From a virus (taxonomy: Duplodnaviria > Heunggongvirae > Uroviricota > Caudoviricetes), in the IMG/VR virus record IMGVR_UViG_2541047798_000006: 41,828 nucleotides of DNA, one strand, 5' to 3'. Positions 9,039-41,828 of this stretch are shown here, one piece after another (positions within the stretch are counted from its first letter, which is position 1; every line of letters starts with the position of its first letter). Below the pieces are notes generated by a model, which searched no databases, was not told the origin of the DNA, and was given only the letters and a program-made list of their open reading frames with translations. The position numbers and the translations under genes are program-made.

Positions 9039-9367
9039 CAGTTCACCACCTGTTCAAACTCTGCGCTGAACTCAACACGCAACATACTGACCCGCGACGA
9101 CCATTTTGCGCAGGTCACCTTTATCTGCCGCCAGTCATAAGGCGGCGTCCACAGAAAGGCTTTCCAGCCTCCGTGCTCTGCCAGAAACGATTCCAACGCC
9201 GTGGCCTCCCAACGGGGGACAGAAATCGTCACGCTGTACGTTTTCAGGTTGGCATTCAGCCCGGCAGGCGCGCGCTGGGAATAGCCATCACCAAAGCGCA
9301 CCTTCCTGACGGAAGGAGCCGAAGCCACATCCATACCGGGTTTCACTTTCCAGCGGAAGGTTTTCAT
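9038..9367 (-). CDS. M: tail tip protein M
   Basis: 109 aa, lambda M-like. Confidence 0.9.
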   Translation of the reverse strand: MKTFRWKVKPGMDVASAPSVRKVRFGDGYSQRAPAGLNANLKTYSVTISVPRWEATALESFLAEHGGWKAFLWTPPYDWRQIKVTCAKWSSRVSMLRVEFSAEFEQVVN

Positions 9368-11863
9368 CGTCCACCTCCGGAGAACAGACCACCATCACGC
9401 ATCTGCCCGGTCACAACATCCATTGCCGCCTTGCGGGCCATGTCATACACTGCCTTCAGCATCTGTGGACCTGGCAGACCATTCGTGCCGTCGTTATTAA
9501 TCACCACATGGTTATTCTGCTCAAACTTCCCGGACGCCTGCGACCGGCTGTCCGCCAGGCTGCCCGGTGTACCGACATAACCACCGGTGGCATAGCCGCG
9601 CATCAGCCGGTAGAGATTCCCCACGCCAATCCGGCTGGTTGCCTCCTTCGTGAAGACAAATTCACCACGGTGAACAATCCCCGCTGGCTCATATTTGCCG
9701 CCGGTTCCCGTAAATCCCCCTGTCGCAAAATGGAATTTCGCCGCAGCTGCCTGAATGGCTGTACCGCCTGACGCGGATGCGCCGCCACCAACAGCACCGC
9801 CAATGGCGCTGCCGATACTCCCGACAATCCCCACCATTGCCTGCTTAAGCAGAATTTCTGTCATCATGGACAGCACGGATCGGGTGAAGCTGCGCCAGTT
9901 TTGTTCACTGCCGGTCAGCATCGCCGCCATATTCTGTGCAATACCATCAAAGGTCTGCGTGGCTGCACTTTTAACCTGCGACATACTGTCCGTGGCGCTC
10001 TCTTCCCACTCACTCCAGCCTGACTTGAGGCCTGCCATCCAGCTCCCGCGAAGCTGGTCTTCAGCTGCCCAGGTCTTTTTCTGCTCTGACATGACGTTAT
10101 TCAGCGCCAGCGGATTATCGCCATACTGTTCCTTCAGACGCTGTTCCGTGGCGTCCCGCGCTGCCTGCCGGTCAGTCAGCCCCCGGTTTTTCGCATCAAT
10201 GGCTGCCCGTTTTGCCCGTTGTTGCTGTGCGAATTTATCCGCCTGCTGCGCCAGCGCATTCAGGTGCTCCTGATACGTGACCTTATCGCCAAGTGCAGCC
10301 AGCTGGCGTTTGTACTCCAGCGTCTCGTCTTTATGCGCCAGCAGGGATTTCTCCTGTGCGGACAGCTGGCGACGTTGTGCCGCCTCCTCCAGTACCGCGA
10401 ACTGACTTTCTGCCTTCCACAAATCCCGGCGCTGCTGGCTGATTTTCTCATTCGCTGTCTTCCTGACGATCGCCCGCAGACACCTTCACGCCGGACTGTT
10501 TCGGCTTTTTCAGCGTCGCTTCATAATCCTTTTTCGCCGCCGCCATCAGCGTGTTGTAATCTGCCTGCAGGATTTTCCCGTCTTTCAGTGCCTTGTTCAG
10601 TTCTTCCTGACGGGCGGTATATTTCTCCAGCGGCGTCTGCAGCCGTTCGTAAGCCTTCTGCGCCTCTTCGGTATATTTCAGCCGTGACGCTTCGGTATCG
10701 CTCTGCTGCTGCGCATTTTTGTCCTGTTGACTCTGCTGTTCAGCCTTCTTTCGGGCGGCTTCAAGCGCAAGACGGGCCTTTTCACGATCATCCCAGTAAC
10801 GCGCCCGCGCTTCATCGTTAACAAAATAATCATCCTTGCGCAGATTCCAGATGTCGTCCGCTTTCTTAAACGCAGCCTCTGCCTTAATCAGCATCTCCTG
10901 AGCGGTATCAGGACGACCAATATCCAGCACCGCATCCCACATGGATTTGAATGCCCGTGCTGTCCTGTCTGCCCAGGTTTCCAGCGTGCCCATGTTCTCT
11001 TTCAGGCGTCGGGTCTGGTCATCAAACCCTTTCGTTGCGGCCTCGTTCGCCGCCTGCAATGCCCCGGCTTCATCGCCGGAACGCTGCAACTGAGCAACAT
11101 ACGCAATCTGCTCCGCCGTCACGTTATGGAACTGGCGCGCCATCGCCGTCAGCCCCGACGTCGGGTCAGTGGTCAGCTTCCCGAAGGCTTCAGCGACCTT
11201 GTCCACCTCCACACCGGATGCAGAGGAGAAACGCGCCACACTCTGGCTGATGGACGCAATCTGAGCCTCACCGCTTACCCCCGCCTTAACCAGTGCACTG
11301 AGTGACTCGCTGGTCTGGTTAAACGTCAGCCCTGCAGCCTGCCCGGCTCTGGACAGGACCAGCATACGATCTGCCGTCAGTCCCGCCTGATTACCGGAAA
11401 GGACCAGCGTTTTGTTGAAATCGGACAGGGTTGAGTTACCCTGATACCAGGCATACGCCAGCGCACCGGTCGCCACCGCCAGCGAGGTGGCCCCGACCAT
11501 CGGCAGGGTGATCGCACCGGCAAGCCCCCGGAACATGGGGATCATCCCGCCGAAGGAGTCCTTAACCTGACCACCCTGTTGCAGCAGGATCAGCCACGGG
11601 CTTTGCCCGCCTGCAAGCTGCGTGGCCACGTCGGTGAACTGTGCAGGCAGCATACGCATGGCGGCTTTATACTGCCCGACGGAAATCCCCGCTTTCTGTG
11701 CAGCCAGCGCCTGTCGGCTCAGCGACTGTTCAACGACTGCCGCTGTTTTTTTCGCATCACTTTCCGTACCGGAAAAATGACGCCTGACTCTGGCCATCTG
11801 CTCGTCAAATCTGGCCGCATCCAGACTTAAATCAACGACCAGATCGCCTACCGGTTCAGCCAT
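9364..11863 (-). pseudogene. H: tail tape measure protein H, split into two reading frames
   Basis: N-terminal piece 10448..11863 (471 aa, ends TGA at 10448) and C-terminal piece 9364..10422 (352 aa, TTG-initiated in the ORF track) are both lambda-H-like but in different frames; the second frame is open upstream to 10485. Confidence 0.7.
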
Positions 11864-26234: not shown

Positions 26235-26570
26235 ATGAAGTGGATTGTGATTGATACAGTTATCCAGCCATCATGCGGAATATCTTTTTCAGTCATATGG
26301 AGTAAAATAAAATTAATAATCTGGTATCAATCGGATGCTTTCTTACCTCCTGAAAGTATATTTACACTGACTCACACAGGCATCATGCTCAATAACAAAG
26401 TGCTGCCTGTAACCATTTACAACGTAGTACCATTCAATAAAACATTCTGGAATTTAATCAAAAACAGCCAGGAATGCCCTACAAATACAGATAACGTATT
26501 GAATGAATGCTTTAATAACCGTTGCACTCTGCAAATATGTCCTTATGGACTAAAACAACAAAGTCCATAA
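26235..26570 (+). CDS. hypothetical AT-rich cargo protein, Cys-rich C-terminus
   Basis: 111 aa, AAGGAAAG SD 4 nt upstream of the ATG; opposite strand to late transcription; very low GC. Confidence 0.5.
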
Positions 26571-26604
26571 GGAGTTTACTCACATCTGACAAAATCAATA
26601 TAAA

Positions 26605-26626
26605 CAGCCCCTCCGGAGAGGGGCTG
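26605..26626. terminator. candidate bidirectional terminator hairpin between convergent cargo ORFs
   Basis: cagcccctc-cgga-gaggggctg 9-bp perfect stem. Confidence 0.45.
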
Positions 26627-27017
26627 GAGAGTGGCGCTATGTGCCATTGCATGGTGCCGGGTGCCTCCCGGTGAATTCAGTACCAGCACCTGAATCCGCG
26701 ATTATCCCATATACCTACTCGCTGATTGCCCCACCGCACAGGGGGATTCACCATGCCAGTTTCTTTTAACAAACTCCCCGCAAACCAGACAACAGTCAAC
26801 CGCCTGAATTGTGAAGTATTTAAAAATTTCTCCCGCTAACTGATACCCGGCTAACAGTCTGGCGTTTTCTTTTTCAGCAACGGGAAAGCAACAACCACCA
26901 CACCCGCCACCAGCACACCGTCAGCCAGCACTGACATTATCCGGCTGCTGCAATGCCATTCACAAAAACAGTAAGCAATCACTTTTTACCGTAACAGGTG
27001 ATAATCCAGATATGTAT

Positions 27018-27481: not shown

Positions 27482-27558
27482 TGGCGCGCTGTACTGGATT
27501 CGAACCAGTGACCGATTGCTTAGAAGGCAATTGCTCTGTCCGGCTGAGCTAACAACGC
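27482..27558 (-). tRNA. tRNA-Arg (anticodon UCU)
   Basis: 77 nt; acceptor GCGTTGT/ACAGCGC, T-loop GGTTCGAATCC, anticodon loop CTTCTAA, 3' GCCA. Confidence 0.85.
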
Positions 27559-27571
27559 TGAATACCGATAA

Positions 27572-27652
27572 TGGACCGCCATCGGGGACCCGCCCCCCGC
27601 ACCAACAACCCTGTTATCGTGTCGTCTGCTCTTCCTGATAAGCTAATGGCGG
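27572..27652 (-). other. degenerate tRNA-like element between the two tRNAs
   Basis: acceptor CCGCCAT/ATGGCGG with T-CCA tail, D-stem GCTT/GAGC, T-stem CGGGG/CCCCG, but non-canonical T-loop GGCGGGT and no foldable anticodon arm. Confidence 0.3.
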
Positions 27653-27659
27653 TTTGTGA

Positions 27660-27735
27660 TGGTGGCCCTTGCTGGATTTGAACCAGCGACCTGGCGATTA
27701 TGAGTCGCTCGCTCTCACCACTGAGCTAAAGGGCC
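27660..27735 (-). tRNA. tRNA-Ile2-like (anticodon CAU; could be read as Met)
   Basis: 76 nt; closely resembles E. coli ileX from memory; anticodon loop CTCATAA. Confidence 0.85.
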
Positions 27736-30479: not shown

Positions 30480-30731
30480 TTATTCTTCTGCAAAAGCTGA
30501 AAAGCCTGCTTTTATTCCGATCTCTTTCAGTGCCTGTAATGAAGTGACAAACTCACCTTCGCGCAAGATAAATCCGTCTGTCACTCGACCATCCACAAAA
30601 TTAATTAACGCAGCCCCATTCTTTCGCAAACACATAATGCGGTAATGACTAACAAGATTTCCATTTTCAACGCACACAGCATAGAGGCCATCTTCACAAA
30701 AAATTTTACGCAGTTCTTCGATGTTCATCAT
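30480..30731 (-). CDS. rem: Rem-like small protein
   Basis: 83 aa, placed next to hok as rem is next to hokD in Qin (from memory). Confidence 0.5.
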   Translation of the reverse strand: MMNIEELRKIFCEDGLYAVCVENGNLVSHYRIMCLRKNGAALINFVDGRVTDGFILREGEFVTSLQALKEIGIKAGFSAFAEE

Positions 30732-30846
30732 CAGAATCCTTCCGGATAATTAGCTCTCCCCTTTAAGGGACCATCCCTCTTATCCCTGCGCGCTACTTAA
30801 GTATTTTTGATTCTATTCCGGCACCGTCCAGAACTTCAAACGCGTG

Positions 30847-30878
30847 AAAATAAAAACAAAAACCCGCCGAAGCGGGTT
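30847..30878 (-). terminator. intrinsic terminator at hok mRNA 3' end
   Basis: - strand aacccgcttcggcgggtttttgtttttatttt. Confidence 0.65.
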
Positions 30879-30917
30879 AAGTGCGGGTGCGTTGAGGATA
30901 CCTGCCACATCAGAGGT

Positions 30918-30946: not shown

Positions 30947-31102
30947 TTACTCCTCAGGTTCGTAAGCTGTGAAGACAGCGACCTCCGTCTGGCCGGTTCG
31001 GATTCGTACCTCGCAGAGGTCTTTCCTCGTTACCAGTGCCGTCACTATGACGGTTAAACAGATGACGATCAGGGCGATTAACATCGCCTTTTGCTGCTTC
31101 AT
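30947..31102 (-). CDS. hok: Hok-family type I toxin (HokD/RelF-like)
   Basis: 51 aa MKQQKAMLIALIVICLTVIVTALVTRKDLCEVRIRTGQTEVAVFTAYEPEE. Confidence 0.85.
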   Translation of the reverse strand: MKQQKAMLIALIVICLTVIVTALVTRKDLCEVRIRTGQTEVAVFTAYEPEE

Positions 31103-31650
31103 AGCCTGCTTCTCCTTGCCTTTCGGCACGTAAGAGGCTAACCTACATGTGTCTAGCATGAAATTGGCCTCAGATTAATGTTAAGCGTCTTGCAGGACGC
31201 GTAATGTTAACTGGGGCTTTTCTCTATCTGCCGTTGGTGTTATGCCCGAGGCAGATAGCCTCAAGCACCCGCAGCCATTCTACTTAACTACCGTTACCTC
31301 GCCAATGTGAAATCAGTCAGAAAGGCGATCCATAAGAACAATAGCAAGACAATAAATCGCCATTACAGCCGTAATAGCCAGCGCACATTTGAGAACCAGC
31401 ACCACAACCTCCTGTATTGGACGTACACCAGTCCTGATGAATATGAGGCTGTCTCGTCAGTGATTCAATACAACTATTGGGTATAGTTTCTCTGATTTTT
31501 TCTGTGGAAATGGGGCTCAACCACTAGTCATTTAATACGCAAAGTCCGATACAAGCTAACCTTCTAGTCCGCTTTGAGCGAAAAGCGGACGTTGGAAGTT
31601 TAAAACTCGCGAACTACTCAGCGTCCATTGATGCGTATTGTGTAACGTGA

Positions 31651-32295
31651 TTAACCACAGATGATATTGAAACGTTCTCCGGAAATCTTGACCATAATGT
31701 CAGACAGTTCGCTGACGGCATGGGCTTCAGATGATCCCAGAGCGTCAGGCTGAACAGCTATTACCGAAGCTCCACTTGCCAGCCCTGCTTTTATACCCGC
31801 AGATGCATCCTCAAATACCACGCATTCACCAGGCTCAAGGCCCAAAGCCAAAGCTGCTTTGATGTAACCCTCGGGACTTGGTTTTCCCGTCATTACATCT
31901 TCTGCACACACCATTACTATGGGTAAGGGGAGATTAGCCGCTTTCATCCTGTTTTCTGCAAGCATTCTGCCTGCAGAAGTGACAAGTGCCCAGCTATCCG
32001 GTGGCAGTTTTGATAAGAGTGCAGCGGCCCCTTTTACTTCAGTAACGCCTTCTGTCATGTTGATTTCAACCTCTTCGAGTGAGGCCGCGATTTTATTGGT
32101 TTTCTCACCTGCACCAATAAAATGCGTCAGTGTATCAATCGTTTGCCGCCCGTGTGCGTAAGCAATCACAGCCTGAGTATCAAGACCGTATTCTGCACAA
32201 AAATCTCTCCAGACGCTTTCCACTACGGCTGTTGAATCAACCAGCGTACCGTCCATATCGAATAAAAAACCCTTAGCGTTGAATATCATTGCCAT
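31651..32295 (-). CDS. HAD-superfamily hydrolase (phosphatase-like)
   Basis: 214 aa, DxDGTL-type motif FDMDGTLVDS near the N-terminus. Confidence 0.8.
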   Translation of the reverse strand: MAMIFNAKGFLFDMDGTLVDSTAVVESVWRDFCAEYGLDTQAVIAYAHGRQTIDTLTHFIGAGEKTNKIAASLEEVEINMTEGVTEVKGAAALLSKLPPDSWALVTSAGRMLAENRMKAANLPLPIVMVCAEDVMTGKPSPEGYIKAALALGLEPGECVVFEDASAGIKAGLASGASVIAVQPDALGSSEAHAVSELSDIMVKISGERFNIICG

Positions 32296-32318
32296 TCCTT
32301 AATGGTTGCAGAAGAAAG

Positions 32319-32957
32319 TTAATCAAACCATGTTTTTTCATCACCTTTCGCTACTCTCAGGCTGACAGCAATCTGCTCAGGCACAATTCTTGAAAGCGAC
32401 AATTCAGGCAGGTCGTTGACATCAAAAAAATCAGCATCGAGTGACTCATGGCTGATTGACAGGCTGCCACCTACTTCTTCACAGAGAAAAATCAGCTTGT
32501 AAACATGCCAGGGTAAAGGCGGATGGCCGTGAAGATTACGATCCCAAACTCCCAATAGTTTAGTCACTCTGACTTTTAATCCGGTTTCTTCTTCGACTTC
32601 TCGACGCACAGCTTCAGAAGGTGTATCTCCAACATCTGCCCATCCGCCAGGAAGACTCCATAATCCATCTGCAGCCTCTTTCACCATCAGAATACGATTA
32701 TTACGCAGGATAAACGCACGCACATCTGTTTTGGGCGTCGCGTAACCCGTTTCCGATACATGAAACAAATCATTGCGGCTAATATCAAACTGCGAACTCA
32801 GCAGTCCAGCGGCAATTTCACGCAAGGCTTCATAGCGTTCCTTGTCAAAGACGTCTTTTGAATAGGTCAGGCCTGACTGCGCGAGGGCCTTTAGTCTCTG
32901 GGCAACAAAAATAAGCTTTTCTTGGGTCAACACTTCAGACATGTTTTTCATCTTCAT
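32319..32957 (-). CDS. NUDIX hydrolase with N-terminal extension
   Basis: 212 aa; Nudix box GGWADVGDTPSEAVRREVEEETGL; 23 nt upstream of the HAD gene on the same strand. Confidence 0.8.
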   Translation of the reverse strand: MKMKNMSEVLTQEKLIFVAQRLKALAQSGLTYSKDVFDKERYEALREIAAGLLSSQFDISRNDLFHVSETGYATPKTDVRAFILRNNRILMVKEAADGLWSLPGGWADVGDTPSEAVRREVEEETGLKVRVTKLLGVWDRNLHGHPPLPWHVYKLIFLCEEVGGSLSISHESLDADFFDVNDLPELSLSRIVPEQIAVSLRVAKGDEKTWFD

Positions 32958-34561: not shown

Positions 34562-35051
34562 AATTCCATCCAGCTTTTTGTTGGTATTGCTGTCGATACG
34601 CAAGCTTGAAAGCAATTGCTTTTTCTATAAGTTCGTCAGTTTCACGATCTACAACGGCAGGATCTGCAAAAAGCAGTCCAGATTCCACCACATCGCCATA
34701 TTCTTTATTTAACCCGGCGATCATGTACGTAATACTTTTTTCACGATACAACCTGAAATCACTAATCCGGATAGCCTCCATAATTGCAGGCACTAGCGCT
34801 GTGAACTTTTCACGCTTATCCCTGGTGTCGATAGCCTTCCAGCGTTCGAATATCTTCACTCGATTAACGCTAAGCGCTCGCTGATCAACCGCGCCACCTT
34901 CATATGTGACACGCTGAACATCGATGTTCGGGCGCTCTTTCAAAGCCCAGAATGCTTCAGTGATTAATATCGTCGCCTGCTCCTGTGTCATTCCTGGTCG
35001 ACATATCCAGGCATCCAGAGCCTCACGAGCCTGTTCAGGAGTGATTTTCAT
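34542..35051 (-). CDS. YdaT-like protein (CII-position regulator)
   Basis: 169 aa; WKAIDTRDKREKFTALVPAIMEAI resembles the YdaT segment W..ET..REK...L.PAI (from memory). Confidence 0.45.
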   Translation of the reverse strand: MKITPEQAREALDAWICRPGMTQEQATILITEAFWALKERPNIDVQRVTYEGGAVDQRALSVNRVKIFERWKAIDTRDKREKFTALVPAIMEAIRISDFRLYREKSITYMIAGLNKEYGDVVESGLLFADPAVVDRETDELIEKAIAFKLAYRQQYQQKAGWNYESSFC

Positions 35052-35262
35052 TGTTCAACCGCCCCGTCCGCTTCGTCTTACGATATTCGTCATAAACTTT
35101 GGGATCATACTGAAGCTCCCCGCCAGATGCCTCCTGTAGACGCATCGCGCGACCTTCAGGAACCAGTATCCCCCAGGCAGCAACACTTGCCAGTCTCACT
35201 CCTGCGGCATTGGCAAGCTTTGTTTTGCTGCCAAAAAAAGTAATTGCGTCAACTTTAAGCAT
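35035..35262 (-). CDS. Cro-like HTH regulator (DicC/YdaS-like)
   Basis: MLKVDAITFFGSKTKLANAAGVRLASV...EGRAMRLQEASGGELQYDPKVY; divergent from the repressor; GAGGGGG SD. Confidence 0.7.
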   Translation of the reverse strand: MLKVDAITFFGSKTKLANAAGVRLASVAAWGILVPEGRAMRLQEASGGELQYDPKVYDEYRKTKRTGRLNNENHS

Positions 35263-35275
35263 CAAAGCCCCCTCT

Positions 35276-35293
35276 TGTTAGACTTTTCTAACA
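35276..35293. promoter_or_regulatory. candidate operator palindrome in the repressor/Cro intergenic region
   Basis: TGTTAGActttTCTAACA perfect 7-bp arms; related half-sites at 35786-35805. Confidence 0.5.
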
Positions 35294-35342
35294 TTATTGT
35301 GCGCGGGATACCTAAGTCAAGAAAAATTAGAATTACCTAACT

Positions 35343-35750
35343 ATGGATACAAGAACCCTAGGCCAGCGAGTTCTGGCGCGACGAAAAGAATTACGCTTAA
35401 CACAACGAGAAGCTGCGCGCCTCGCTGGAGTTGCTCACGTCACAATTTCACAATGGGAAAGAGACGAAACCCAGCCAGTCGGAAAACGATTGTTTGCTTT
35501 AGCGGATGCTCTGAAGTGCTCACCTACATGGCTAATGTTTGGTGATGAAGACAAGGCACCAGTGCCTGCACAAGAACTTCATGTGGAAACAGAGCTAACT
35601 CCCAACCACAAAGAATTGATCGAATTATTCGATGCTCTTCCATCTTCCGAGCAGGAAGCCTTGCTGTCTGAAATGCGCGCAAGAGTAGAAAACTTCAACA
35701 AACTCTTCGAAGAAATGCTTAAAGCGCGTAAAAATAAATCAATAAAATAA
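35343..35750 (+). CDS. prophage repressor, DicA-like (HTH-XRE, no S24 peptidase domain)
   Basis: 135 aa ...LTQREAARLAGVAHVTISQWERDETQPVGKRLFALADALKCSPTWLMFGDED...MRARVENFNKLFEEMLKAR. Confidence 0.8.
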   Translation: MDTRTLGQRVLARRKELRLTQREAARLAGVAHVTISQWERDETQPVGKRLFALADALKCSPTWLMFGDEDKAPVPAQELHVETELTPNHKELIELFDALPSSEQEALLSEMRARVENFNKLFEEMLKARKNKSIK

Positions 35751-35785: not shown

Positions 35786-35805
35786 TTGTTAGACCAACCT
35801 AACAA
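35786..35805. promoter_or_regulatory. second operator-like palindrome downstream of repressor gene
   Basis: TTGTTAG-accaac-CTAACAA; a third partial copy at about 35823-35838. Confidence 0.4.
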
Positions 35806-35918
35806 AAAACACTTGCCTCTCATGTTAGGTTATTCTAAATTACTTTCCATCAAGACACCGCACGGTGTTCTCAGCAAACAGTTCCGCTACCCCGGCGTTA
35901 AGGGGAAATGAGGTCAGC

Positions 35919-36074
35919 ATGGATACTATCGATCTTGGCAACAACGAATCTCTGGTATGCGGCGTGTTTCCCAACCAAGACGGCACGTTCACCGCGATGA
36001 CGTATACCAAAAGCAAAACGTTTAAAACCGAAGCTGGCGCGCATCGCTGGCTGGAAAGAAATTCAGGTGAGTGA
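35919..36074 (+). CDS. YdfA-like small protein
   Basis: 51 aa MDTIDLGNNESLVCGVFPNQDGTFTAMTYTKSKTFKTEAGAHRWLERNSGE. Confidence 0.6.
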   Translation: MDTIDLGNNESLVCGVFPNQDGTFTAMTYTKSKTFKTEAGAHRWLERNSGE

Positions 36075-36075
36075 T

Positions 36076-36204
36076 ATGGATTTCGACGCAATCATGGAAA
36101 AGGCTTACGAAGAATACTTCGAAGGCCTTGCCGAAGGCGAAGAAGCTCTCAGCTTCAGCGAATTTAAACAGGCGCTTTCCAGTTCGGCAAAAGCTAACAA
36201 CTGA
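36076..36204 (+). CDS. YdfB-like small protein (42 aa, not in ORF track)
   Basis: MDFDAIMEKAYEEYFEGLAEGEEALSFSEFKQALSSSAKANN read directly after the ydfA-like stop. Confidence 0.5.
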   Translation: MDFDAIMEKAYEEYFEGLAEGEEALSFSEFKQALSSSAKANN

Positions 36205-36358: not shown

Positions 36359-36829
36359 TTATGTGCAAAACACAGTATGGATTTTCGTCGGGAAGGAGTT
36401 GCCCTTCCATGGGGAGCAAAATATTAGCAGATACCAGTTTTTTATATCAGAATCATTGCGTACAGCATGGATCACAGGATAGTTCCTCGATAATGCCGTA
36501 ATAAGAATTTTTTTCTGACCCGCAGTCAAGGAATCGATAACTGCATTGATATGACTGATTGTTTTTTGTTCTCTTGTATTGTTCCGGTGACTTCGCCAGA
36601 CCTTACGAAGAAATAAAGCTAAACGTTGGAGATTTATAGCCAGCACAAAAGAAAAGGCAAAAACGAATACCGGGTAAATATAAGGAATGCTGATTTTGTC
36701 TTGAACATACTCCGGTACAGAATCAGGCATAAAGAGCAATATCAAAACAAAGATAATAAGCATATACATAAGGCGCTCTAAGGGTTCGTTACTGAATAAC
36801 TTGCTCAACAAGCCGAATACATCAGGCAT
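36359..36829 (-). CDS. hypothetical membrane protein, antisense to the early-left operon
   Basis: 156-aa ORF, two N-terminal hydrophobic segments, AT-rich, GAGAG SD-like sequence upstream. Confidence 0.35.
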   Translation of the reverse strand: MPDVFGLLSKLFSNEPLERLMYMLIIFVLILLFMPDSVPEYVQDKISIPYIYPVFVFAFSFVLAINLQRLALFLRKVWRSHRNNTREQKTISHINAVIDSLTAGQKKILITALSRNYPVIHAVRNDSDIKNWYLLIFCSPWKGNSFPTKIHTVFCT

Positions 36830-37140
36830 ATTAATAACTCTCTACTGTAAGGGTATTAAAATGCTATCACAGACTCTCGCTGTAGGGGTATAGCCGAGAC
36901 CACCGAGCCTGAAGTGGTAAAAAGACAGGCACACAACACGAAAGCGCACGGCGAGGCTGTTAGTTCATAAATGGTCTGTCGTTAAATTTTCGTCGACCGT
37001 GCGCTTCCGGTTGTGGCAATCCGCGAAATGGCGCGGCGGTAAGTATGGCGGGGTTATTCCTTCCCCGTTGAGGACACCGGGTTGTCAGGTTGACCATACG
37101 CTTAAGTGACAACCCCGCTGCAGCGCCCTCTGTTATCAAT

Positions 37141-37198
37141 TTTCTGGTGACGTTTGGCGGTATCAGTTTTACTCCGTGACTGCTCTGCCGCCCTTTTT
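37141..37198 (+). ncRNA. dicF: DicF sRNA (ftsZ-targeting)
   Basis: tttctggtgacgtttggcggtatcagttttactccgtgactgctctgccgccctttttaa matches the DicF sequence from memory. Confidence 0.8.
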
Positions 37199-37372
37199 AA
37201 AGTGAATTTTGTGATGCGGTGAATGCGGCTGAGCGCACGCGGAACAGTTAAAACCGAAAACTGTGTTATGGGTGGATTCTCTGTATCCGGCGTTAATTGT
37301 TAACTGGTTAACGTCACCTGGAGGCACCAGGCACCGCATCAACAAAGTTCATTTGTAAAAATGGAGATAATT

Positions 37373-37594
37373 ATGATTGCTCATCACTTCGGAACTGATG
37401 AGATTCCTCGTCAGTGCGTGACTCCCGGTGATTATGTTATTCATAAAGGAAGAACATATATTGCTTCGGTAAACAACATTAAAAAACAACGGCTCTATAT
37501 TCGTGATTTTTCCACACAACACTGTATTAAGGAAACCATGATTAAAGTCTTCCTTGGTCGTGATGGTTTACCTGTAAAAGCAGAGTCATGGTGA
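37373..37594 (+). CDS. hypothetical small protein in the dicB position
   Basis: 73 aa from the ATG at 37373 (GGAGA SD); not similar to DicB as remembered. Confidence 0.5.
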
Positions 37595-37717: not shown

Positions 37718-40192
37718 ATGAGTAAAGTCTTTATTTGCGCCGCCATTCCTGACGAACAGGCAATTAAGGAAGAAGGTGCAGTTGCTGTAGCCACTGCCAT
37801 CGAAGCTGGTGACGAACGCCGCGCCCGAGCCAAATTTACCTGGCAATTCCTGGAGCAATATCCGGCTGCTCAGGACTGTGCTTATAAATTTCTTGTCTGC
37901 GAGGATAAACCCGGCATGGCCCGCCCTGCCCTTGATTCCTGGGATACCGAATATATGCAGGAAAACCGCTGGGATGAGGGATCGTCTTCCTTTGTCCCGG
38001 TCGAACCAGAGCCGAATACAGAAATTGTTAACTTTAATCAGTTATCCGACGACAAACAGGCCGCTGTTCTCGTTAAGTTTGGCGCACATGAAAACGTCAC
38101 CGTGGATATGGTCATCAACGCAAGCGGGCTTCTTGGCGATGACGACATGATGACCTTTGACGGACACCTCGCAGAGGCAATTATCCGGACTAAAGAAATT
38201 AACGCCATGTATCCGGAACGTCAGATTGAATACATCAACGATGCCAGACGTGATTTAAAACCAACCGCCAAATGGCCCGACGTTCAGGCATATTTTCTCG
38301 ACCGTAAAAAACGCATGGAAAAGGAGCGCAAAGAAGGTGGTGCATATGCTTCTGTTGTTGATCTTGCCCGTGCCAGCGTCAACCGGCAGAACACTGAAAA
38401 CTCAGTAGCAAAAATCAACCCTGTCACTACTGCCATTCGTCGCGAATACAAGCAGACATGGAAAACACTGGATGATGAACTGGCCTATGCTCTGTGGCCT
38501 GGGGACATTGATGCCGGAAACATTGACGGCAGCATCCATCGCTGGGCAAAAAATGAAGTTATCGACAACGACCGCGAAGACTGGAAGCGTATCTCGGCAT
38601 CAATGCGCAAACAGCCTGATGCCCTTCGCTACGACCGCCAGACTATTTTTGGCCTTGTCCGTGAACGTCCGATCGACATTCACAAAGACCCTGTGGCACT
38701 GAACAAATACATTACTGAATACCTGACTACAAAGGGCGTGTTTGAAGATGAAGGAAGAAATCAGAGCGCAACTGATACTCTCTCGTCGCCAGTACCAGAA
38801 ACTGATGCAGTGGAAACGGCAATTCCGGACAACGAAAAAACCGAATGCAAAGTGGAAATCGAACCATCTGTAGAGCGTGAGGGGCCGTTCTACTTCCTCT
38901 TCACCGACAAGGATGGCGAAAAATACGGTCGCGCAAACAAACTTTCTGGTCTGGATAAGGCACTGGCTGCCGGGGCTACTGAAATCACGAAAGAAGAATA
39001 TTTCGCCCGCAAAAACGGTACATACTCAGGTTCACAACAAAATACTGGTGCATCTGACACGACCGCACAACCAGAGCCGGTAAAAGTTACCGCTGACGAA
39101 GTAAACAAAATTATGCAGGCAGCCAATATCAGCCAGCCTGACGCCAATCAGCTGCTTGCAGTATCACGTGGTGAATTTGTTGCAGGGATTAGCGACCCGA
39201 ACGATCCGAAATGGGTGAAGGGGATTGAAACCCGCGATTCTGTGAACCAGAACCAGCAAGAAACGGAACAGAACGACCAGAAAGCGGAACAAAACAGCCC
39301 AAATGCGTTACAAAACGAGCCAGAAACGAAACAACCTGAGCCAGTAGCGCAACAGGAAGCGGAAAAAGTCTGCACCGCCTGTGGTCAGACCGGCGGCGGC
39401 AACTGCCCTGATTGTGGTGCGGTGATGGGCGACGCAACATACCAGGAAACATTCGATGAAGAGAATCAGGCTGAAGTTCAGGAAAATGATCCGGAGGAAA
39501 TGGAAGGCGCTGAACATCCACACAAGGAGAATGCTGGCAGCGCTCAGGACCACGCCAGCGATAATGAAACTGGCGAGACGGCAGATTCCTTAATTGCGGT
39601 GAACGGTCATCACGTTATCACATCCACCAGCAGAGTGTGGCACCATCTGATGATCGACCTTGAAACGATGGGAACAAATCCTGATGCGCCAATCAACTCT
39701 ATTGGCGGTAAATTCTTTGATCCCGAAACCGGAGAGATGGGGCCGGAATTTAGCAAGACCATCGATCTGGATACTGCTGGCGGAGTCATTGATCGTGACG
39801 TCATTAAATGGTGGCTTAAGCAATCACGCGAGGCGCAATCTGCCATTCTGACCGATGAAATCCCGTTAGATGATGCACTACTGCAATTGCGGGAATTTAT
39901 CGACGAAAACTCCGGTGAATTTTTTGTTCAGGTCTGGGGAAATGGAGCCAACTTCGACAACGTGATTTTACGCCGTTCATACGAACGGCAGGGGATCCCC
40001 TGCCCGTGGCGTTATTGCAACGATCGCGATGTGCGCACAATCGTTGAGCTGGGAAAAACCCTGAACTTCGATGCCAGAACGGATATTCCATTCGACGGTG
40101 AGCGCCACAATGCACTTGATGACGCCCGTTACCAGGCAAAATACGTTTCAGCTATCTGGCAAAAACTGATCCCGAGTCAGGCTGATTTTTAA
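37718..40192 (+). CDS. large early-region protein with C-terminal DEDDh (DnaQ-like) 3'-5' exonuclease domain
   Basis: 824 aa; motifs MIDLETMG, WGNGANFDNVILR, HNALDDARYQ; central CTACGQTGGGNCPDCG zinc ribbon; acidic/Gln-rich linker. Confidence 0.7.
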   Translation: MSKVFICAAIPDEQAIKEEGAVAVATAIEAGDERRARAKFTWQFLEQYPAAQDCAYKFLVCEDKPGMARPALDSWDTEYMQENRWDEGSSSFVPVEPEPNTEIVNFNQLSDDKQAAVLVKFGAHENVTVDMVINASGLLGDDDMMTFDGHLAEAIIRTKEINAMYPERQIEYINDARRDLKPTAKWPDVQAYFLDRKKRMEKERKEGGAYASVVDLARASVNRQNTENSVAKINPVTTAIRREYKQTWKTLDDELAYALWPGDIDAGNIDGSIHRWAKNEVIDNDREDWKRISASMRKQPDALRYDRQTIFGLVRERPIDIHKDPVALNKYITEYLTTKGVFEDEGRNQSATDTLSSPVPETDAVETAIPDNEKTECKVEIEPSVEREGPFYFLFTDKDGEKYGRANKLSGLDKALAAGATEITKEEYFARKNGTYSGSQQNTGASDTTAQPEPVKVTADEVNKIMQAANISQPDANQLLAVSRGEFVAGISDPNDPKWVKGIETRDSVNQNQQETEQNDQKAEQNSPNALQNEPETKQPEPVAQQEAEKVCTACGQTGGGNCPDCGAVMGDATYQETFDEENQAEVQENDPEEMEGAEHPHKENAGSAQDHASDNETGETADSLIAVNGHHVITSTSRVWHHLMIDLETMGTNPDAPINSIGGKFFDPETGEMGPEFSKTIDLDTAGGVIDRDVIKWWLKQSREAQSAILTDEIPLDDALLQLREFIDENSGEFFVQVWGNGANFDNVILRRSYERQGIPCPWRYCNDRDVRTIVELGKTLNFDARTDIPFDGERHNALDDARYQAKYVSAIWQKLIPSQADF

Positions 40193-40261: not shown

Positions 40262-40513
40262 ATGAGCGAAGTAGTCATGATTGTCTCTCCCGGTAAATGG
40301 GTATCCGAAGAACAGCTAATTGCACTGAAAGGAATAAAAAAGGGAACGCTAAAAAAAGCCAGGGAAAAATCGTTTATGGAAGGAAGAGAGTATAAGCATG
40401 TCGCCCATGACTGTATGCCATGGGATAACAGCCCATGCTTTTACAACCTGGAAGAAATTGACCGCTGGATTGAGCGCCAGGCATTAGCAAGACCAAGACG
40501 CCATCTTACTTGA
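40262..40513 (+). CDS. xis: excisionase-like small protein
   Basis: 83-aa ORF immediately upstream of the integrase. Confidence 0.45.
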   Translation: MSEVVMIVSPGKWVSEEQLIALKGIKKGTLKKAREKSFMEGREYKHVAHDCMPWDNSPCFYNLEEIDRWIERQALARPRRHLT

Positions 40514-40547
40514 CTAAAAGCCACACTAACCAATGAGAGAAGCTGAA

Positions 40548-41828
40548 ATGAAATATCCGACAGGCGTGGAAAACCATGGAGGGAAATTGCGTATCTGGTT
40601 TGTTTATAAAGGTGTAAGAGTCAGAGAAAATCTGGGGGTTCCTGACACGGCAAAAAACAGGCGCATTGCAGGTGAGCTGCGCGCCTCTGTTTGTTACGCA
40701 ATAAAAACTGGTGTTTTCGACTATGCAAAACAGTTTCCCTCCTCACACAATCTGGAAAAATTTGGTGAGGCCCGACAAGATTTAACCATAAAGGAACTGG
40801 CTGAAAAATTTCTGGCACTGAAAGAAACGGAAGTCGCAAAAACGTCACTCAACACGTACCGTGCCGTCATCAAAAATATTCTGAGCATAATCGGTGAAAA
40901 AAATCTTGCATCGTCGATTAATAAAGAAAAATTGCTGGCGGTACGTAAAGAGTTACTTACTGGATACCAGATCCCCAAAAGTAATTATATTGTTACGCAA
41001 CCGGGGAGATCGGCTGTCACCGTAAATAATTACATGACAAATCTTTACGCCGTGTTCCAGTTTGGTGTTGATAACGGTTACCTGGCAGATAATCCGTTTA
41101 AGGGGATCTCGCCATTAAAGGAATCAAGAACCATTCCTGATCCTCTTTCACGGGAGGAATTTATCCGTCTTATCGACGCCTGCAGGAATCAGCAGGCCAA
41201 AAATTTATGGTGCGTTTCTGTTTATACAGGCATTCGCCCTGGTGAGCTGTGCGCGCTTGGCTGGGAGGACATAGATCTGAAAAATGGAACAATGATGATC
41301 AGAAGAAATTTAGCAAAAGATCGTTTTACGGTACCGAAAACACAGGCTGGTACCAATCGGGTAATTCACCTTATCAAGCCTGCAATCGACGCTCTCAGGA
41401 ATCAGATGACACTAACGAGGCTGAGCAAAGAGCATATTATTGACGTTCACCTCAGAGAGTTTGGCAGAACAGAAAAACAAAAATGCACCTTTGTTTTTCA
41501 ACCTGAAGTGTCAGCGAGAGTAAAAAATTATGGTGACCATTTTACCGTTGACTCAATAAGGCAGATGTGGGACGCAGCGATAAAGCGCGCTGGCCTCCGC
41601 CACCGCAAATCATATCAGTCGAGACATACTTATGCCTGCTGGTCGCTGACAGCCGGTGCCAACCCGGCATTCATAGCAAACCAGATGGGACATGCAGATG
41701 CGCAAATGGTGTTTCAGGTATACGGGAAATGGATGTCTGAAAACAATAATGCACAGGTAGCCCTGTTAAATACACAGCTAAGCGAGTTTGCCCCAACCAT
41801 GCCCCAAAACAAGGCGACGCAAAATTAA
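40548..41828 (+). CDS. int: tyrosine site-specific integrase
   Basis: C-terminal catalytic region ...HRKSYQSRHTYACWSLTAGANPAFIANQMGHADAQMVFQVYGKW...; ends at the window edge. Confidence 0.9.
   Translation: MKYPTGVENHGGKLRIWFVYKGVRVRENLGVPDTAKNRRIAGELRASVCYAIKTGVFDYAKQFPSSHNLEKFGEARQDLTIKELAEKFLALKETEVAKTSLNTYRAVIKNILSIIGEKNLASSINKEKLLAVRKELLTGYQIPKSNYIVTQPGRSAVTVNNYMTNLYAVFQFGVDNGYLADNPFKGISPLKESRTIPDPLSREEFIRLIDACRNQQAKNLWCVSVYTGIRPGELCALGWEDIDLKNGTMMIRRNLAKDRFTVPKTQAGTNRVIHLIKPAIDALRNQMTLTRLSKEHIIDVHLREFGRTEKQKCTFVFQPEVSARVKNYGDHFTVDSIRQMWDAAIKRAGLRHRKSYQSRHTYACWSLTAGANPAFIANQMGHADAQMVFQVYGKWMSENNNAQVALLNTQLSEFAPTMPQNKATQN

Follow-up and report, generated by a model that had tools for sequence, protein, structure and literature searches.

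Knowledge of DicF goes back to the late 1980s, and the literature covers its targets, how it is processed and how it is regulated. The reference gene in E. coli K-12 MG1655 is b1574 (NC_000913.3, 1649382-1649434), annotated as "small regulatory RNA DicF" and located in the Qin prophage, within the canonical dicBF operon ydfABC-dicF-dicB-ydfDE. This operon is transcribed from dicBp, the analogue of lambda PL, which is repressed by DicA and induced 165-fold by the Qin antirepressor Rem (PMC10448788). DicF is processed from a polycistronic dicBp transcript that starts upstream of ydfA, no internal promoter having been found; K-12 makes transcripts of 1,146 nt, ending at dicF, and of 1,608 nt, reading through, and the 53-nt DicF requires RNase E while a 190-nt form requires RNase III (PMC10448788). 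The 3' end of the 53-nt species results from Rho-independent termination, and RNase III cleavage of read-through transcripts yields a 72-nt DicF (PMC5069750). Expressed in trans, DicF represses ftsZ, xylR and pykA via direct pairing: its 3' part pairs with the ribosome-binding region of ftsZ with the help of Hfq, as proved by the compensatory pair DicF23/ftsZcomp23, its 5' part targets xylR, and pykA is another target (PMC5069750). Published work further indicates that DicF toxicity does not arise solely from ftsZ repression.

The window analyzed here is the whole stretch of 41,828 nt, which matches the chromosome of E. coli O16:H6 CU37RT-2 at 100% identity (NZ_CP082774.1, where a position equals the window position + 2,447,150), as well as that of a few other human isolates. 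According to the RefSeq annotation, it represents a near-complete lambdoid prophage of about 43 kb between sitD and rspB, with genes for tail, head, terminase, lysis and the Q antiterminator, two tRNAs, rusA, rem, hokD/sok, HAD and NUDIX hydrolases and replication, followed by an immunity region and a dicF operon that ends with xis and int. The rspB gene adjoins int here and intQ in K-12; given that K-12 Qin ends with intQ beside rspB, the prophage in the window sits at the same site as Qin.

Several accessory features of the prophage were recorded along the way. The tape-measure gene (9364-11863, minus strand; 2456514-2459013 in the record) carries an annotated frameshift; no other gene for head, tail or packaging is marked as a pseudogene, and several small accessory open reading frames are annotated as partial. 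Despite its complete look, the prophage may therefore be unable to form infectious particles. The anti-adapter gene iraM (26235-26570, plus strand) lies on the opposite strand just downstream of a copy of the STnc100 RNA, and two tRNA genes (Arg and Ile by RefSeq; 27485-27735, minus strand) lie downstream of the Q antiterminator gene. The hokD toxin gene and a full-scoring Rfam sok antitoxin RNA (118 bits) constitute a type I toxin-antitoxin pair at 30947-31270 (minus strand). Between hokD/sok and the replication genes are the HAD-family and NUDIX hydrolase genes (31651-32957, minus strand); they have the appearance of cargo ("moron") genes of the early-right region.

The dicF gene, its precursor and the downstream leader

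The first-pass annotation had taken positions 37141-37198 for DicF with its terminator T-run, and had named a search with the Rfam DicF model as the check, a score below threshold speaking against the assignment. When this search was run with RF00039, it returned window positions 37142-37193 (plus strand) with a score of 76.7 bits, far exceeding the gathering score of 48. The match was full-length (model positions 1-52 of 52) with E = 2.4e-15 in a whole-window search; no non-canonical pairs were flagged in the alignment, and a permissive local scan gave the same outcome. Comparison with the characterized K-12 RNA was equally clear: window positions 37141-37193 are identical at 53/53 positions, which covers both the 3' region that pairs with ftsZ and pykA and the 5' region that pairs with xylR. 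The proposed start, 37141, is exactly the annotated 5' end of K-12 dicF. The 58-nt string occurs as a single copy in the window, at 37141-37198 (plus strand) with 0 mismatches, and 0 of 100 shuffled windows contained any match to it with up to three mismatches.

The terminator was confirmed as well. The 53-nt gene (37141-37193, plus strand) is followed by five T residues at 37194-37198 (plus strand), which form the T-run of the Rho-independent terminator after a hairpin at 37156-37192 and are the same in K-12. Folded as RNA, the 58-nt sequence forms the 3' hairpin with UUUUU directly after it; the energy is -15.9 kcal/mol (z = -2.3), which 2 of 200 shuffles equaled or bettered, and the DicF hairpin appears in both the minimum free energy (MFE) and the centroid structure. 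A promoter/terminator scan left this terminator unflagged because its loop exceeds 8 nt. Degenerate DicF-like hairpins do exist in related prophages, that of Rac scoring 39.1 bits, and the locus might in principle be only a decayed remnant of that sort, or a chance resemblance; this is refuted by the full-length match at 76.7 bits, the zero differences from K-12 and the lack of any shuffle match, and its probability is close to nil. All DicF features that could be tested (model score, identity, terminator, operon context, processing context and target) were found at this locus. We are highly confident that window positions 37141-37193 are a bona fide dicF gene that would act through the four-step mechanism set out below.

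The flanks of dicF are also conserved. Over 36990-37345, they are about 98% identical to K-12, with eight differing positions in total, 37020 and 37123 upstream of dicF and 37217, 37256, 37262, 37335, 37341 and 37347 downstream. The precursor of the 190-nt DicF species would span 37004-37140 (plus strand), with two differences from K-12; its 5' end was placed by homology only, by counting back from the terminator. Neither the 190-nt precursor (37004-37198; z = -1.8) nor a 301-nt stretch around DicF (z = -0.8) folded significantly better than shuffled sequence. Between dicF and kil lies a 179-nt structured leader (37194-37372, plus strand) with an MFE of -66 kcal/mol (z = -6.1; none of 200 shuffles folded as well), in which 37194-37221 pairs with 37332-37361 to form a closing helix of about 28 bp. 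The pairing of this helix persists in the window, Rac and K-12, positions 37217 and 37335 showing exchanges of a wobble for a Watson-Crick pair. Position 37212, inside the helix, is where RNase III would be expected to cut to yield the 72-nt DicF. The context for RNase E and RNase III processing of DicF is thus present, cleavage being predicted from the roughly 98% K-12-like flanks and the conserved helix.

This arrangement bears on whether DicF acts mainly in cis, as an internal terminator and processing hub (a tL-like attenuator) that limits kil, exo, xis and int and releases the RNA as a by-product. The hairpin and U-run fall exactly between ydfAB and kil, K-12 shows both the terminated 1,146-nt and the read-through 1,608-nt transcripts (PMC10448788), and the strongly folded RNase III helix lies directly 3' of DicF. 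A role in cis is nevertheless compatible with, and not exclusive of, the main explanation, and the same RNA acts in trans (PMC5069750). Moreover, Rac keeps the hairpin and U-run while its DicF 5' and loop sequences have decayed, whereas full DicF is intact here and in most E. coli genomes. Since the Rac terminator was kept despite the decay of DicF, a terminator alone needs no full DicF and cannot explain the perfect conservation at this locus. A mainly cis-acting DicF is possible but somewhat unlikely; a cis role in attenuation or processing alongside the trans role is probably also true.

The leader shows a further resemblance. It scores 39.2 bits against the Rfam STnc100 model, below the gathering score of 47, and the equivalent Rac sequence scores 35.5 bits. 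A full-scoring STnc100 copy (130.5 bits) resides in the same prophage at 26596-26785 (minus strand), downstream of Q and the tRNAs, and shares with the leader the motif GGUGAAU and a UCACC-NGGAGGCACCN-GGCACC hairpin core. That the leader is a diverged paralogue of the uncharacterized STnc100, and a conserved prophage RNA module with a function of its own beyond that of a spacer, is an unlikely proposal. If true, the leader could act, for instance, as a switch gated by RNase III and tying terminator read-through to the translation or stability of the inhibitor that follows, dicB in Qin and kil in Rac and here; DicF, leader and inhibitor would then form a portable cassette in which dicB and kil have been swapped exactly at the start codon.

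A Qin/Rac mosaic operon and its immunity region

On the plus strand, the genes follow the order DicA-type gene, promoter, ydfA, ydfB, dicF, kil, exo, xis and int. The placement of DicF in the early-left operon, as first proposed, is borne out by a divergent pair of Cro-like and DicA-like genes, with dicF downstream on the DicA strand. The DicA-type repressor, a cI analogue, is encoded at 35343-35750 (plus strand; HTH_3 E = 1.5e-14) and is 57% identical to K-12 DicA, both proteins being 135 aa long. Divergent from it is a Cro/DicC-type regulator gene (35035-35265, minus strand; Pfam P22_Cro E = 5.2e-12; "Cro/CI family" in RefSeq). Between these two genes are operator palindromes of the form TGTTAG-N6-CTAA(CA) at 35276-35293 and 35327-35342 (no strand assigned), which align to the K-12 dicA/dicC operator region, and further palindromes are found just 5' of ydfA at 35787-35804 and 35823-35838. 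The TGTTAG-N6-CTAA pattern has 7 matches in the window, where 1.45 are expected; none of 100 shuffles had as many, and the immunity region contains 6 of them. The same pattern with N7 spacing (TGTTAG-N7-CTAA) was tried and gave no matches, the clustered sites being those with N6 spacing.

The palindromes 5' of ydfA overlap a candidate promoter at 35787-35841 (plus strand), with TTGCCT at 35813-35818, a 17-nt spacer and TAAATT at 35836-35841; the palindrome at 35823-35838 falls between the putative hexamers. By alignment position these hexamers match the K-12 TTGACC-17-TAATCT, and we infer that they form a dicBp-equivalent promoter that is likewise active. A generic promoter scan did not flag them, their score of 8 of 12 being below its threshold. 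No terminator-like site was predicted on the plus strand between this promoter and dicF, which is weak evidence given that the scan also missed the DicF terminator. The rem gene (30480-30731, minus strand; "protein Rem" in RefSeq) is a homologue of the Qin antirepressor gene. A LexA-box search found no site near rem, including the upstream interval 30732-30900, and the count over the whole window was unenriched; Gifsy antirepressors, by contrast, are LexA-controlled. With a DicA-type repressor this diverged, its control by the Rem of this prophage is putative.

The body of the operon is assembled from two sources. Near-identity to K-12 begins just 3' of the dicBp-like promoter and spans the first two operon genes, ydfA (35919-36074, plus strand) and ydfB (36076-36204, plus strand), which were identified by Pfam DUF1391 (E = 1.9e-29) and RefSeq. 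The position of K-12 ydfC is then occupied by the superinfection exclusion gene sieB (36359-36829, minus strand; Pfam SieB E = 2.6e-13). From about 36935 on, the sequence is again of Qin type and comprises the DicF precursor region, DicF itself and the leader that follows. This homology to Qin ends exactly at the dicB start codon and the sequence is Rac-like from there, the dicB position being taken by kil (37373-37594, plus strand; "kil" in RefSeq), which encodes a 73-aa FtsZ inhibitor of the Rac KilR type that is 82% identical to Rac KilR. The operon continues with an 824-aa exonuclease (37718-40192, plus strand; Pfam Rv2179c-like), an excisionase (40262-40513, plus strand; Pfam DUF1233) and an integrase (40533-41828, plus strand; Pfam Phage_integrase), with rspB adjacent by RefSeq.

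Two hallmarks of the canonical dicBF operon, dicB downstream of dicF and ydfC between ydfB and dicF, were not found. A tblastn search with K-12 DicB gave no match anywhere in the window at E <= 10, and no significant match to YdfC was detected in the window, the best (E = 0.17) being at another place in it. The locus is a Qin/Rac mosaic of the kind expected for lambdoid phages. PGAP places a pseudogene labeled "DicB, missing C-terminus" at 37263-37346 (plus strand). We rejected this as a true truncated dicB: it aligns to the K-12 spacer 5' of the dicB ATG. In K-12 that spacer, between dicF and dicB, forms an open frame continuous with the dicB ATG, which probably explains the label.

An additional feature of the layout, shared by Rac, is that sieB lies antisense within the early-left operon. 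Given this orientation, the DicF precursor must be transcribed against sieB, in convergent fashion, and transcriptional interference through collision or antisense effects may arise, which counts as a point against simply transferring the K-12 scheme.

Targeting of ftsZ, proposed mechanism and prevalence

The first-pass annotation had further claimed that the prophage can inhibit host cell division through ftsZ mRNA when the operon is derepressed. Published genetics on the identical RNA supports this claim, as does the host ftsZ leader (-100 to +60), which is identical to that of K-12 at 160/160 positions and at least 99% identical in 5,389 of 5,425 E. coli genomes. Given that the host leader is the same as in K-12, the published compensatory-mutation proof of pairing should transfer. 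A crude duplex energy for DicF and the ftsZ leader was -38.5 kcal/mol versus -32.9 +/- 4.2 for mononucleotide shuffles, 48 of 500 of which were as good. Since this energy is not clearly better than that of the shuffles, we base the ftsZ claim on published genetics and on RNA and target both being identical to those of K-12. From the K-12 work, we infer that DicF would be expressed from the mosaic operon and would exert this effect in CU37RT-2.

We propose that the mechanism would proceed in four steps, in which processing, pairing and repression are carried over from the K-12 literature. First, transcription would start at the DicA-repressed PL-like promoter at about 35813-35841, 5' of ydfA, once the DicA-type repressor is lost, with the Rem antirepressor or spontaneous switching as possible triggers; RNA polymerase would traverse ydfA, ydfB and the antisense strand of sieB, with much of the transcription ending at the DicF hairpin and U-run (37156-37198). 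Second, an RNase E cut at the 5' end would release the 53-nt RNA and RNase III would give the 190-nt form, while in read-through RNA the latter enzyme would cleave the long helix near 37212, leaving the 72-nt form. Third, assisted by Hfq, the 3' half of DicF would pair with the ftsZ ribosome-binding region, blocking FtsZ synthesis and causing filamentation, with the 5' half targeting xylR. Fourth, read-through past the terminator would express kil, a protein FtsZ inhibitor, and then exo, xis and int.

Alternatively, dicF could be an intact yet silent passenger, retained through linkage in a repressed and possibly defective prophage and without effect on the host. The operon does sit behind a repressor with operators over its promoter, the tape-measure gene is frameshifted, rem has no LexA box nearby, and K-12 dicBp is not induced by mitomycin C (PMC10448788). 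On the other hand, DicF accumulates in stationary phase in K-12, and dicBp switches on spontaneously in a subpopulation, about 1% in a reporter strain (PMC10448788). The distribution of dicF also speaks against a passenger: 4,370 of 5,426 complete E. coli genomes carry the dicF block, at a median of two places and at nine at the most, and in most of the carriers, often multicopy, dicF is conserved at 95% identity or more (nearly all matches reach at least this level), which argues for selection. We consider a silent dicF quite unlikely and favor a functional gene that would be expressed upon derepression.

The dicF block was also found in 30 sequenced phage records as a 95-99% match. The arrangement seen here is much rarer than dicF itself. 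With a query designed so that only a true dicF+kil junction reaches 80% coverage, the junction was detected in 135 of 5,426 complete E. coli genomes. The exact 2.5-kb arrangement including sieB was present in 10 genomes; besides CU37RT-2, eight genomes carry this region with an identity of at least 99%. The dicF gene is annotated in K-12, but RefSeq/PGAP places no feature over it in the non-K-12 RefSeq genomes listed or sampled, even though dicF exceeds the Rfam threshold. Automated annotation of this locus is therefore misleading, leaving dicF unmarked and calling an untranslated spacer a DicB pseudogene. Beyond correct annotation our findings matter little; what is mildly new consists of these annotation issues and the structured leader after DicF.

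Comparison with Qin, Rac and other dicF-carrying phages

The closest relative is Qin of K-12 MG1655, which shares with the window the identical 53-nt RNA and T-run, as well as a 137-nt upstream precursor and a downstream RNase III helix that are about 98% identical. Both prophages use the same integration site beside rspB and show the same upstream order of DicC-like gene, DicA-like gene, ydfA and ydfB. They differ in completeness, Qin being a 20-kb remnant while the prophage in the window is near-complete at about 43 kb, with head, tail, lysis, Q, replication, int and xis, and thereby offers a view of a less-decayed Qin relative. Immunity is of a different specificity too, with a repressor that shares 57% identity with DicA and with operator spacers unlike those of Qin. 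Finally, whereas Qin has ydfC, dicB and ydfD, the window has antisense sieB, kil and the exonuclease gene instead.

Rac (sieB/kilR/ydaE/racC/recE) provides the other half of the comparison. Its layout is the same, with sieB on the minus strand, a gap of about 440-540 nt and kil on the plus strand; KilR is 82% identical, and the leader 5' of kil, with its long closing helix, shows about 83% identity. In an E. coli B derivative, the sieB-kilR gap of Rac contains a degenerate DicF-like hairpin and U-run (positions 1451-1506 of locus L004), whose 39.1 bits fall below the 48-bit threshold, and Rac is without the DicF precursor region of about 140 nt present in Qin and the window. Conversely, the window is without the ydaE and racC genes of Rac, and its exonuclease has an Rv2179c-like 3'-5' exonuclease domain.

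Beyond Qin and Rac, the same RNA is found in the early region of lambdoid phages that are functional or nearly so, among them the lambdoid and Stx prophages of EHEC O157:H7 and the phages mEp460 and PPompW. In EHEC, Melson and Kendall (2019) reportedly linked DicF to virulence through oxygen-dependent activation of pchA, an effect said to depend on the LEE and pch genes; CU37RT-2 is an O16:H6 strain of commensal type. Several dicF copies are present in Sakai and EDL933 (PMC5069750), and the genes flanking the EHEC and phage copies vary from prophage to prophage. The element described here is thus already known, is very common in E. coli and is identical to the reference gene; the local peculiarity is the mosaic operon, in which DicF is paired with KilR and not DicB, placing one RNA and one protein inhibitor of FtsZ in one operon.
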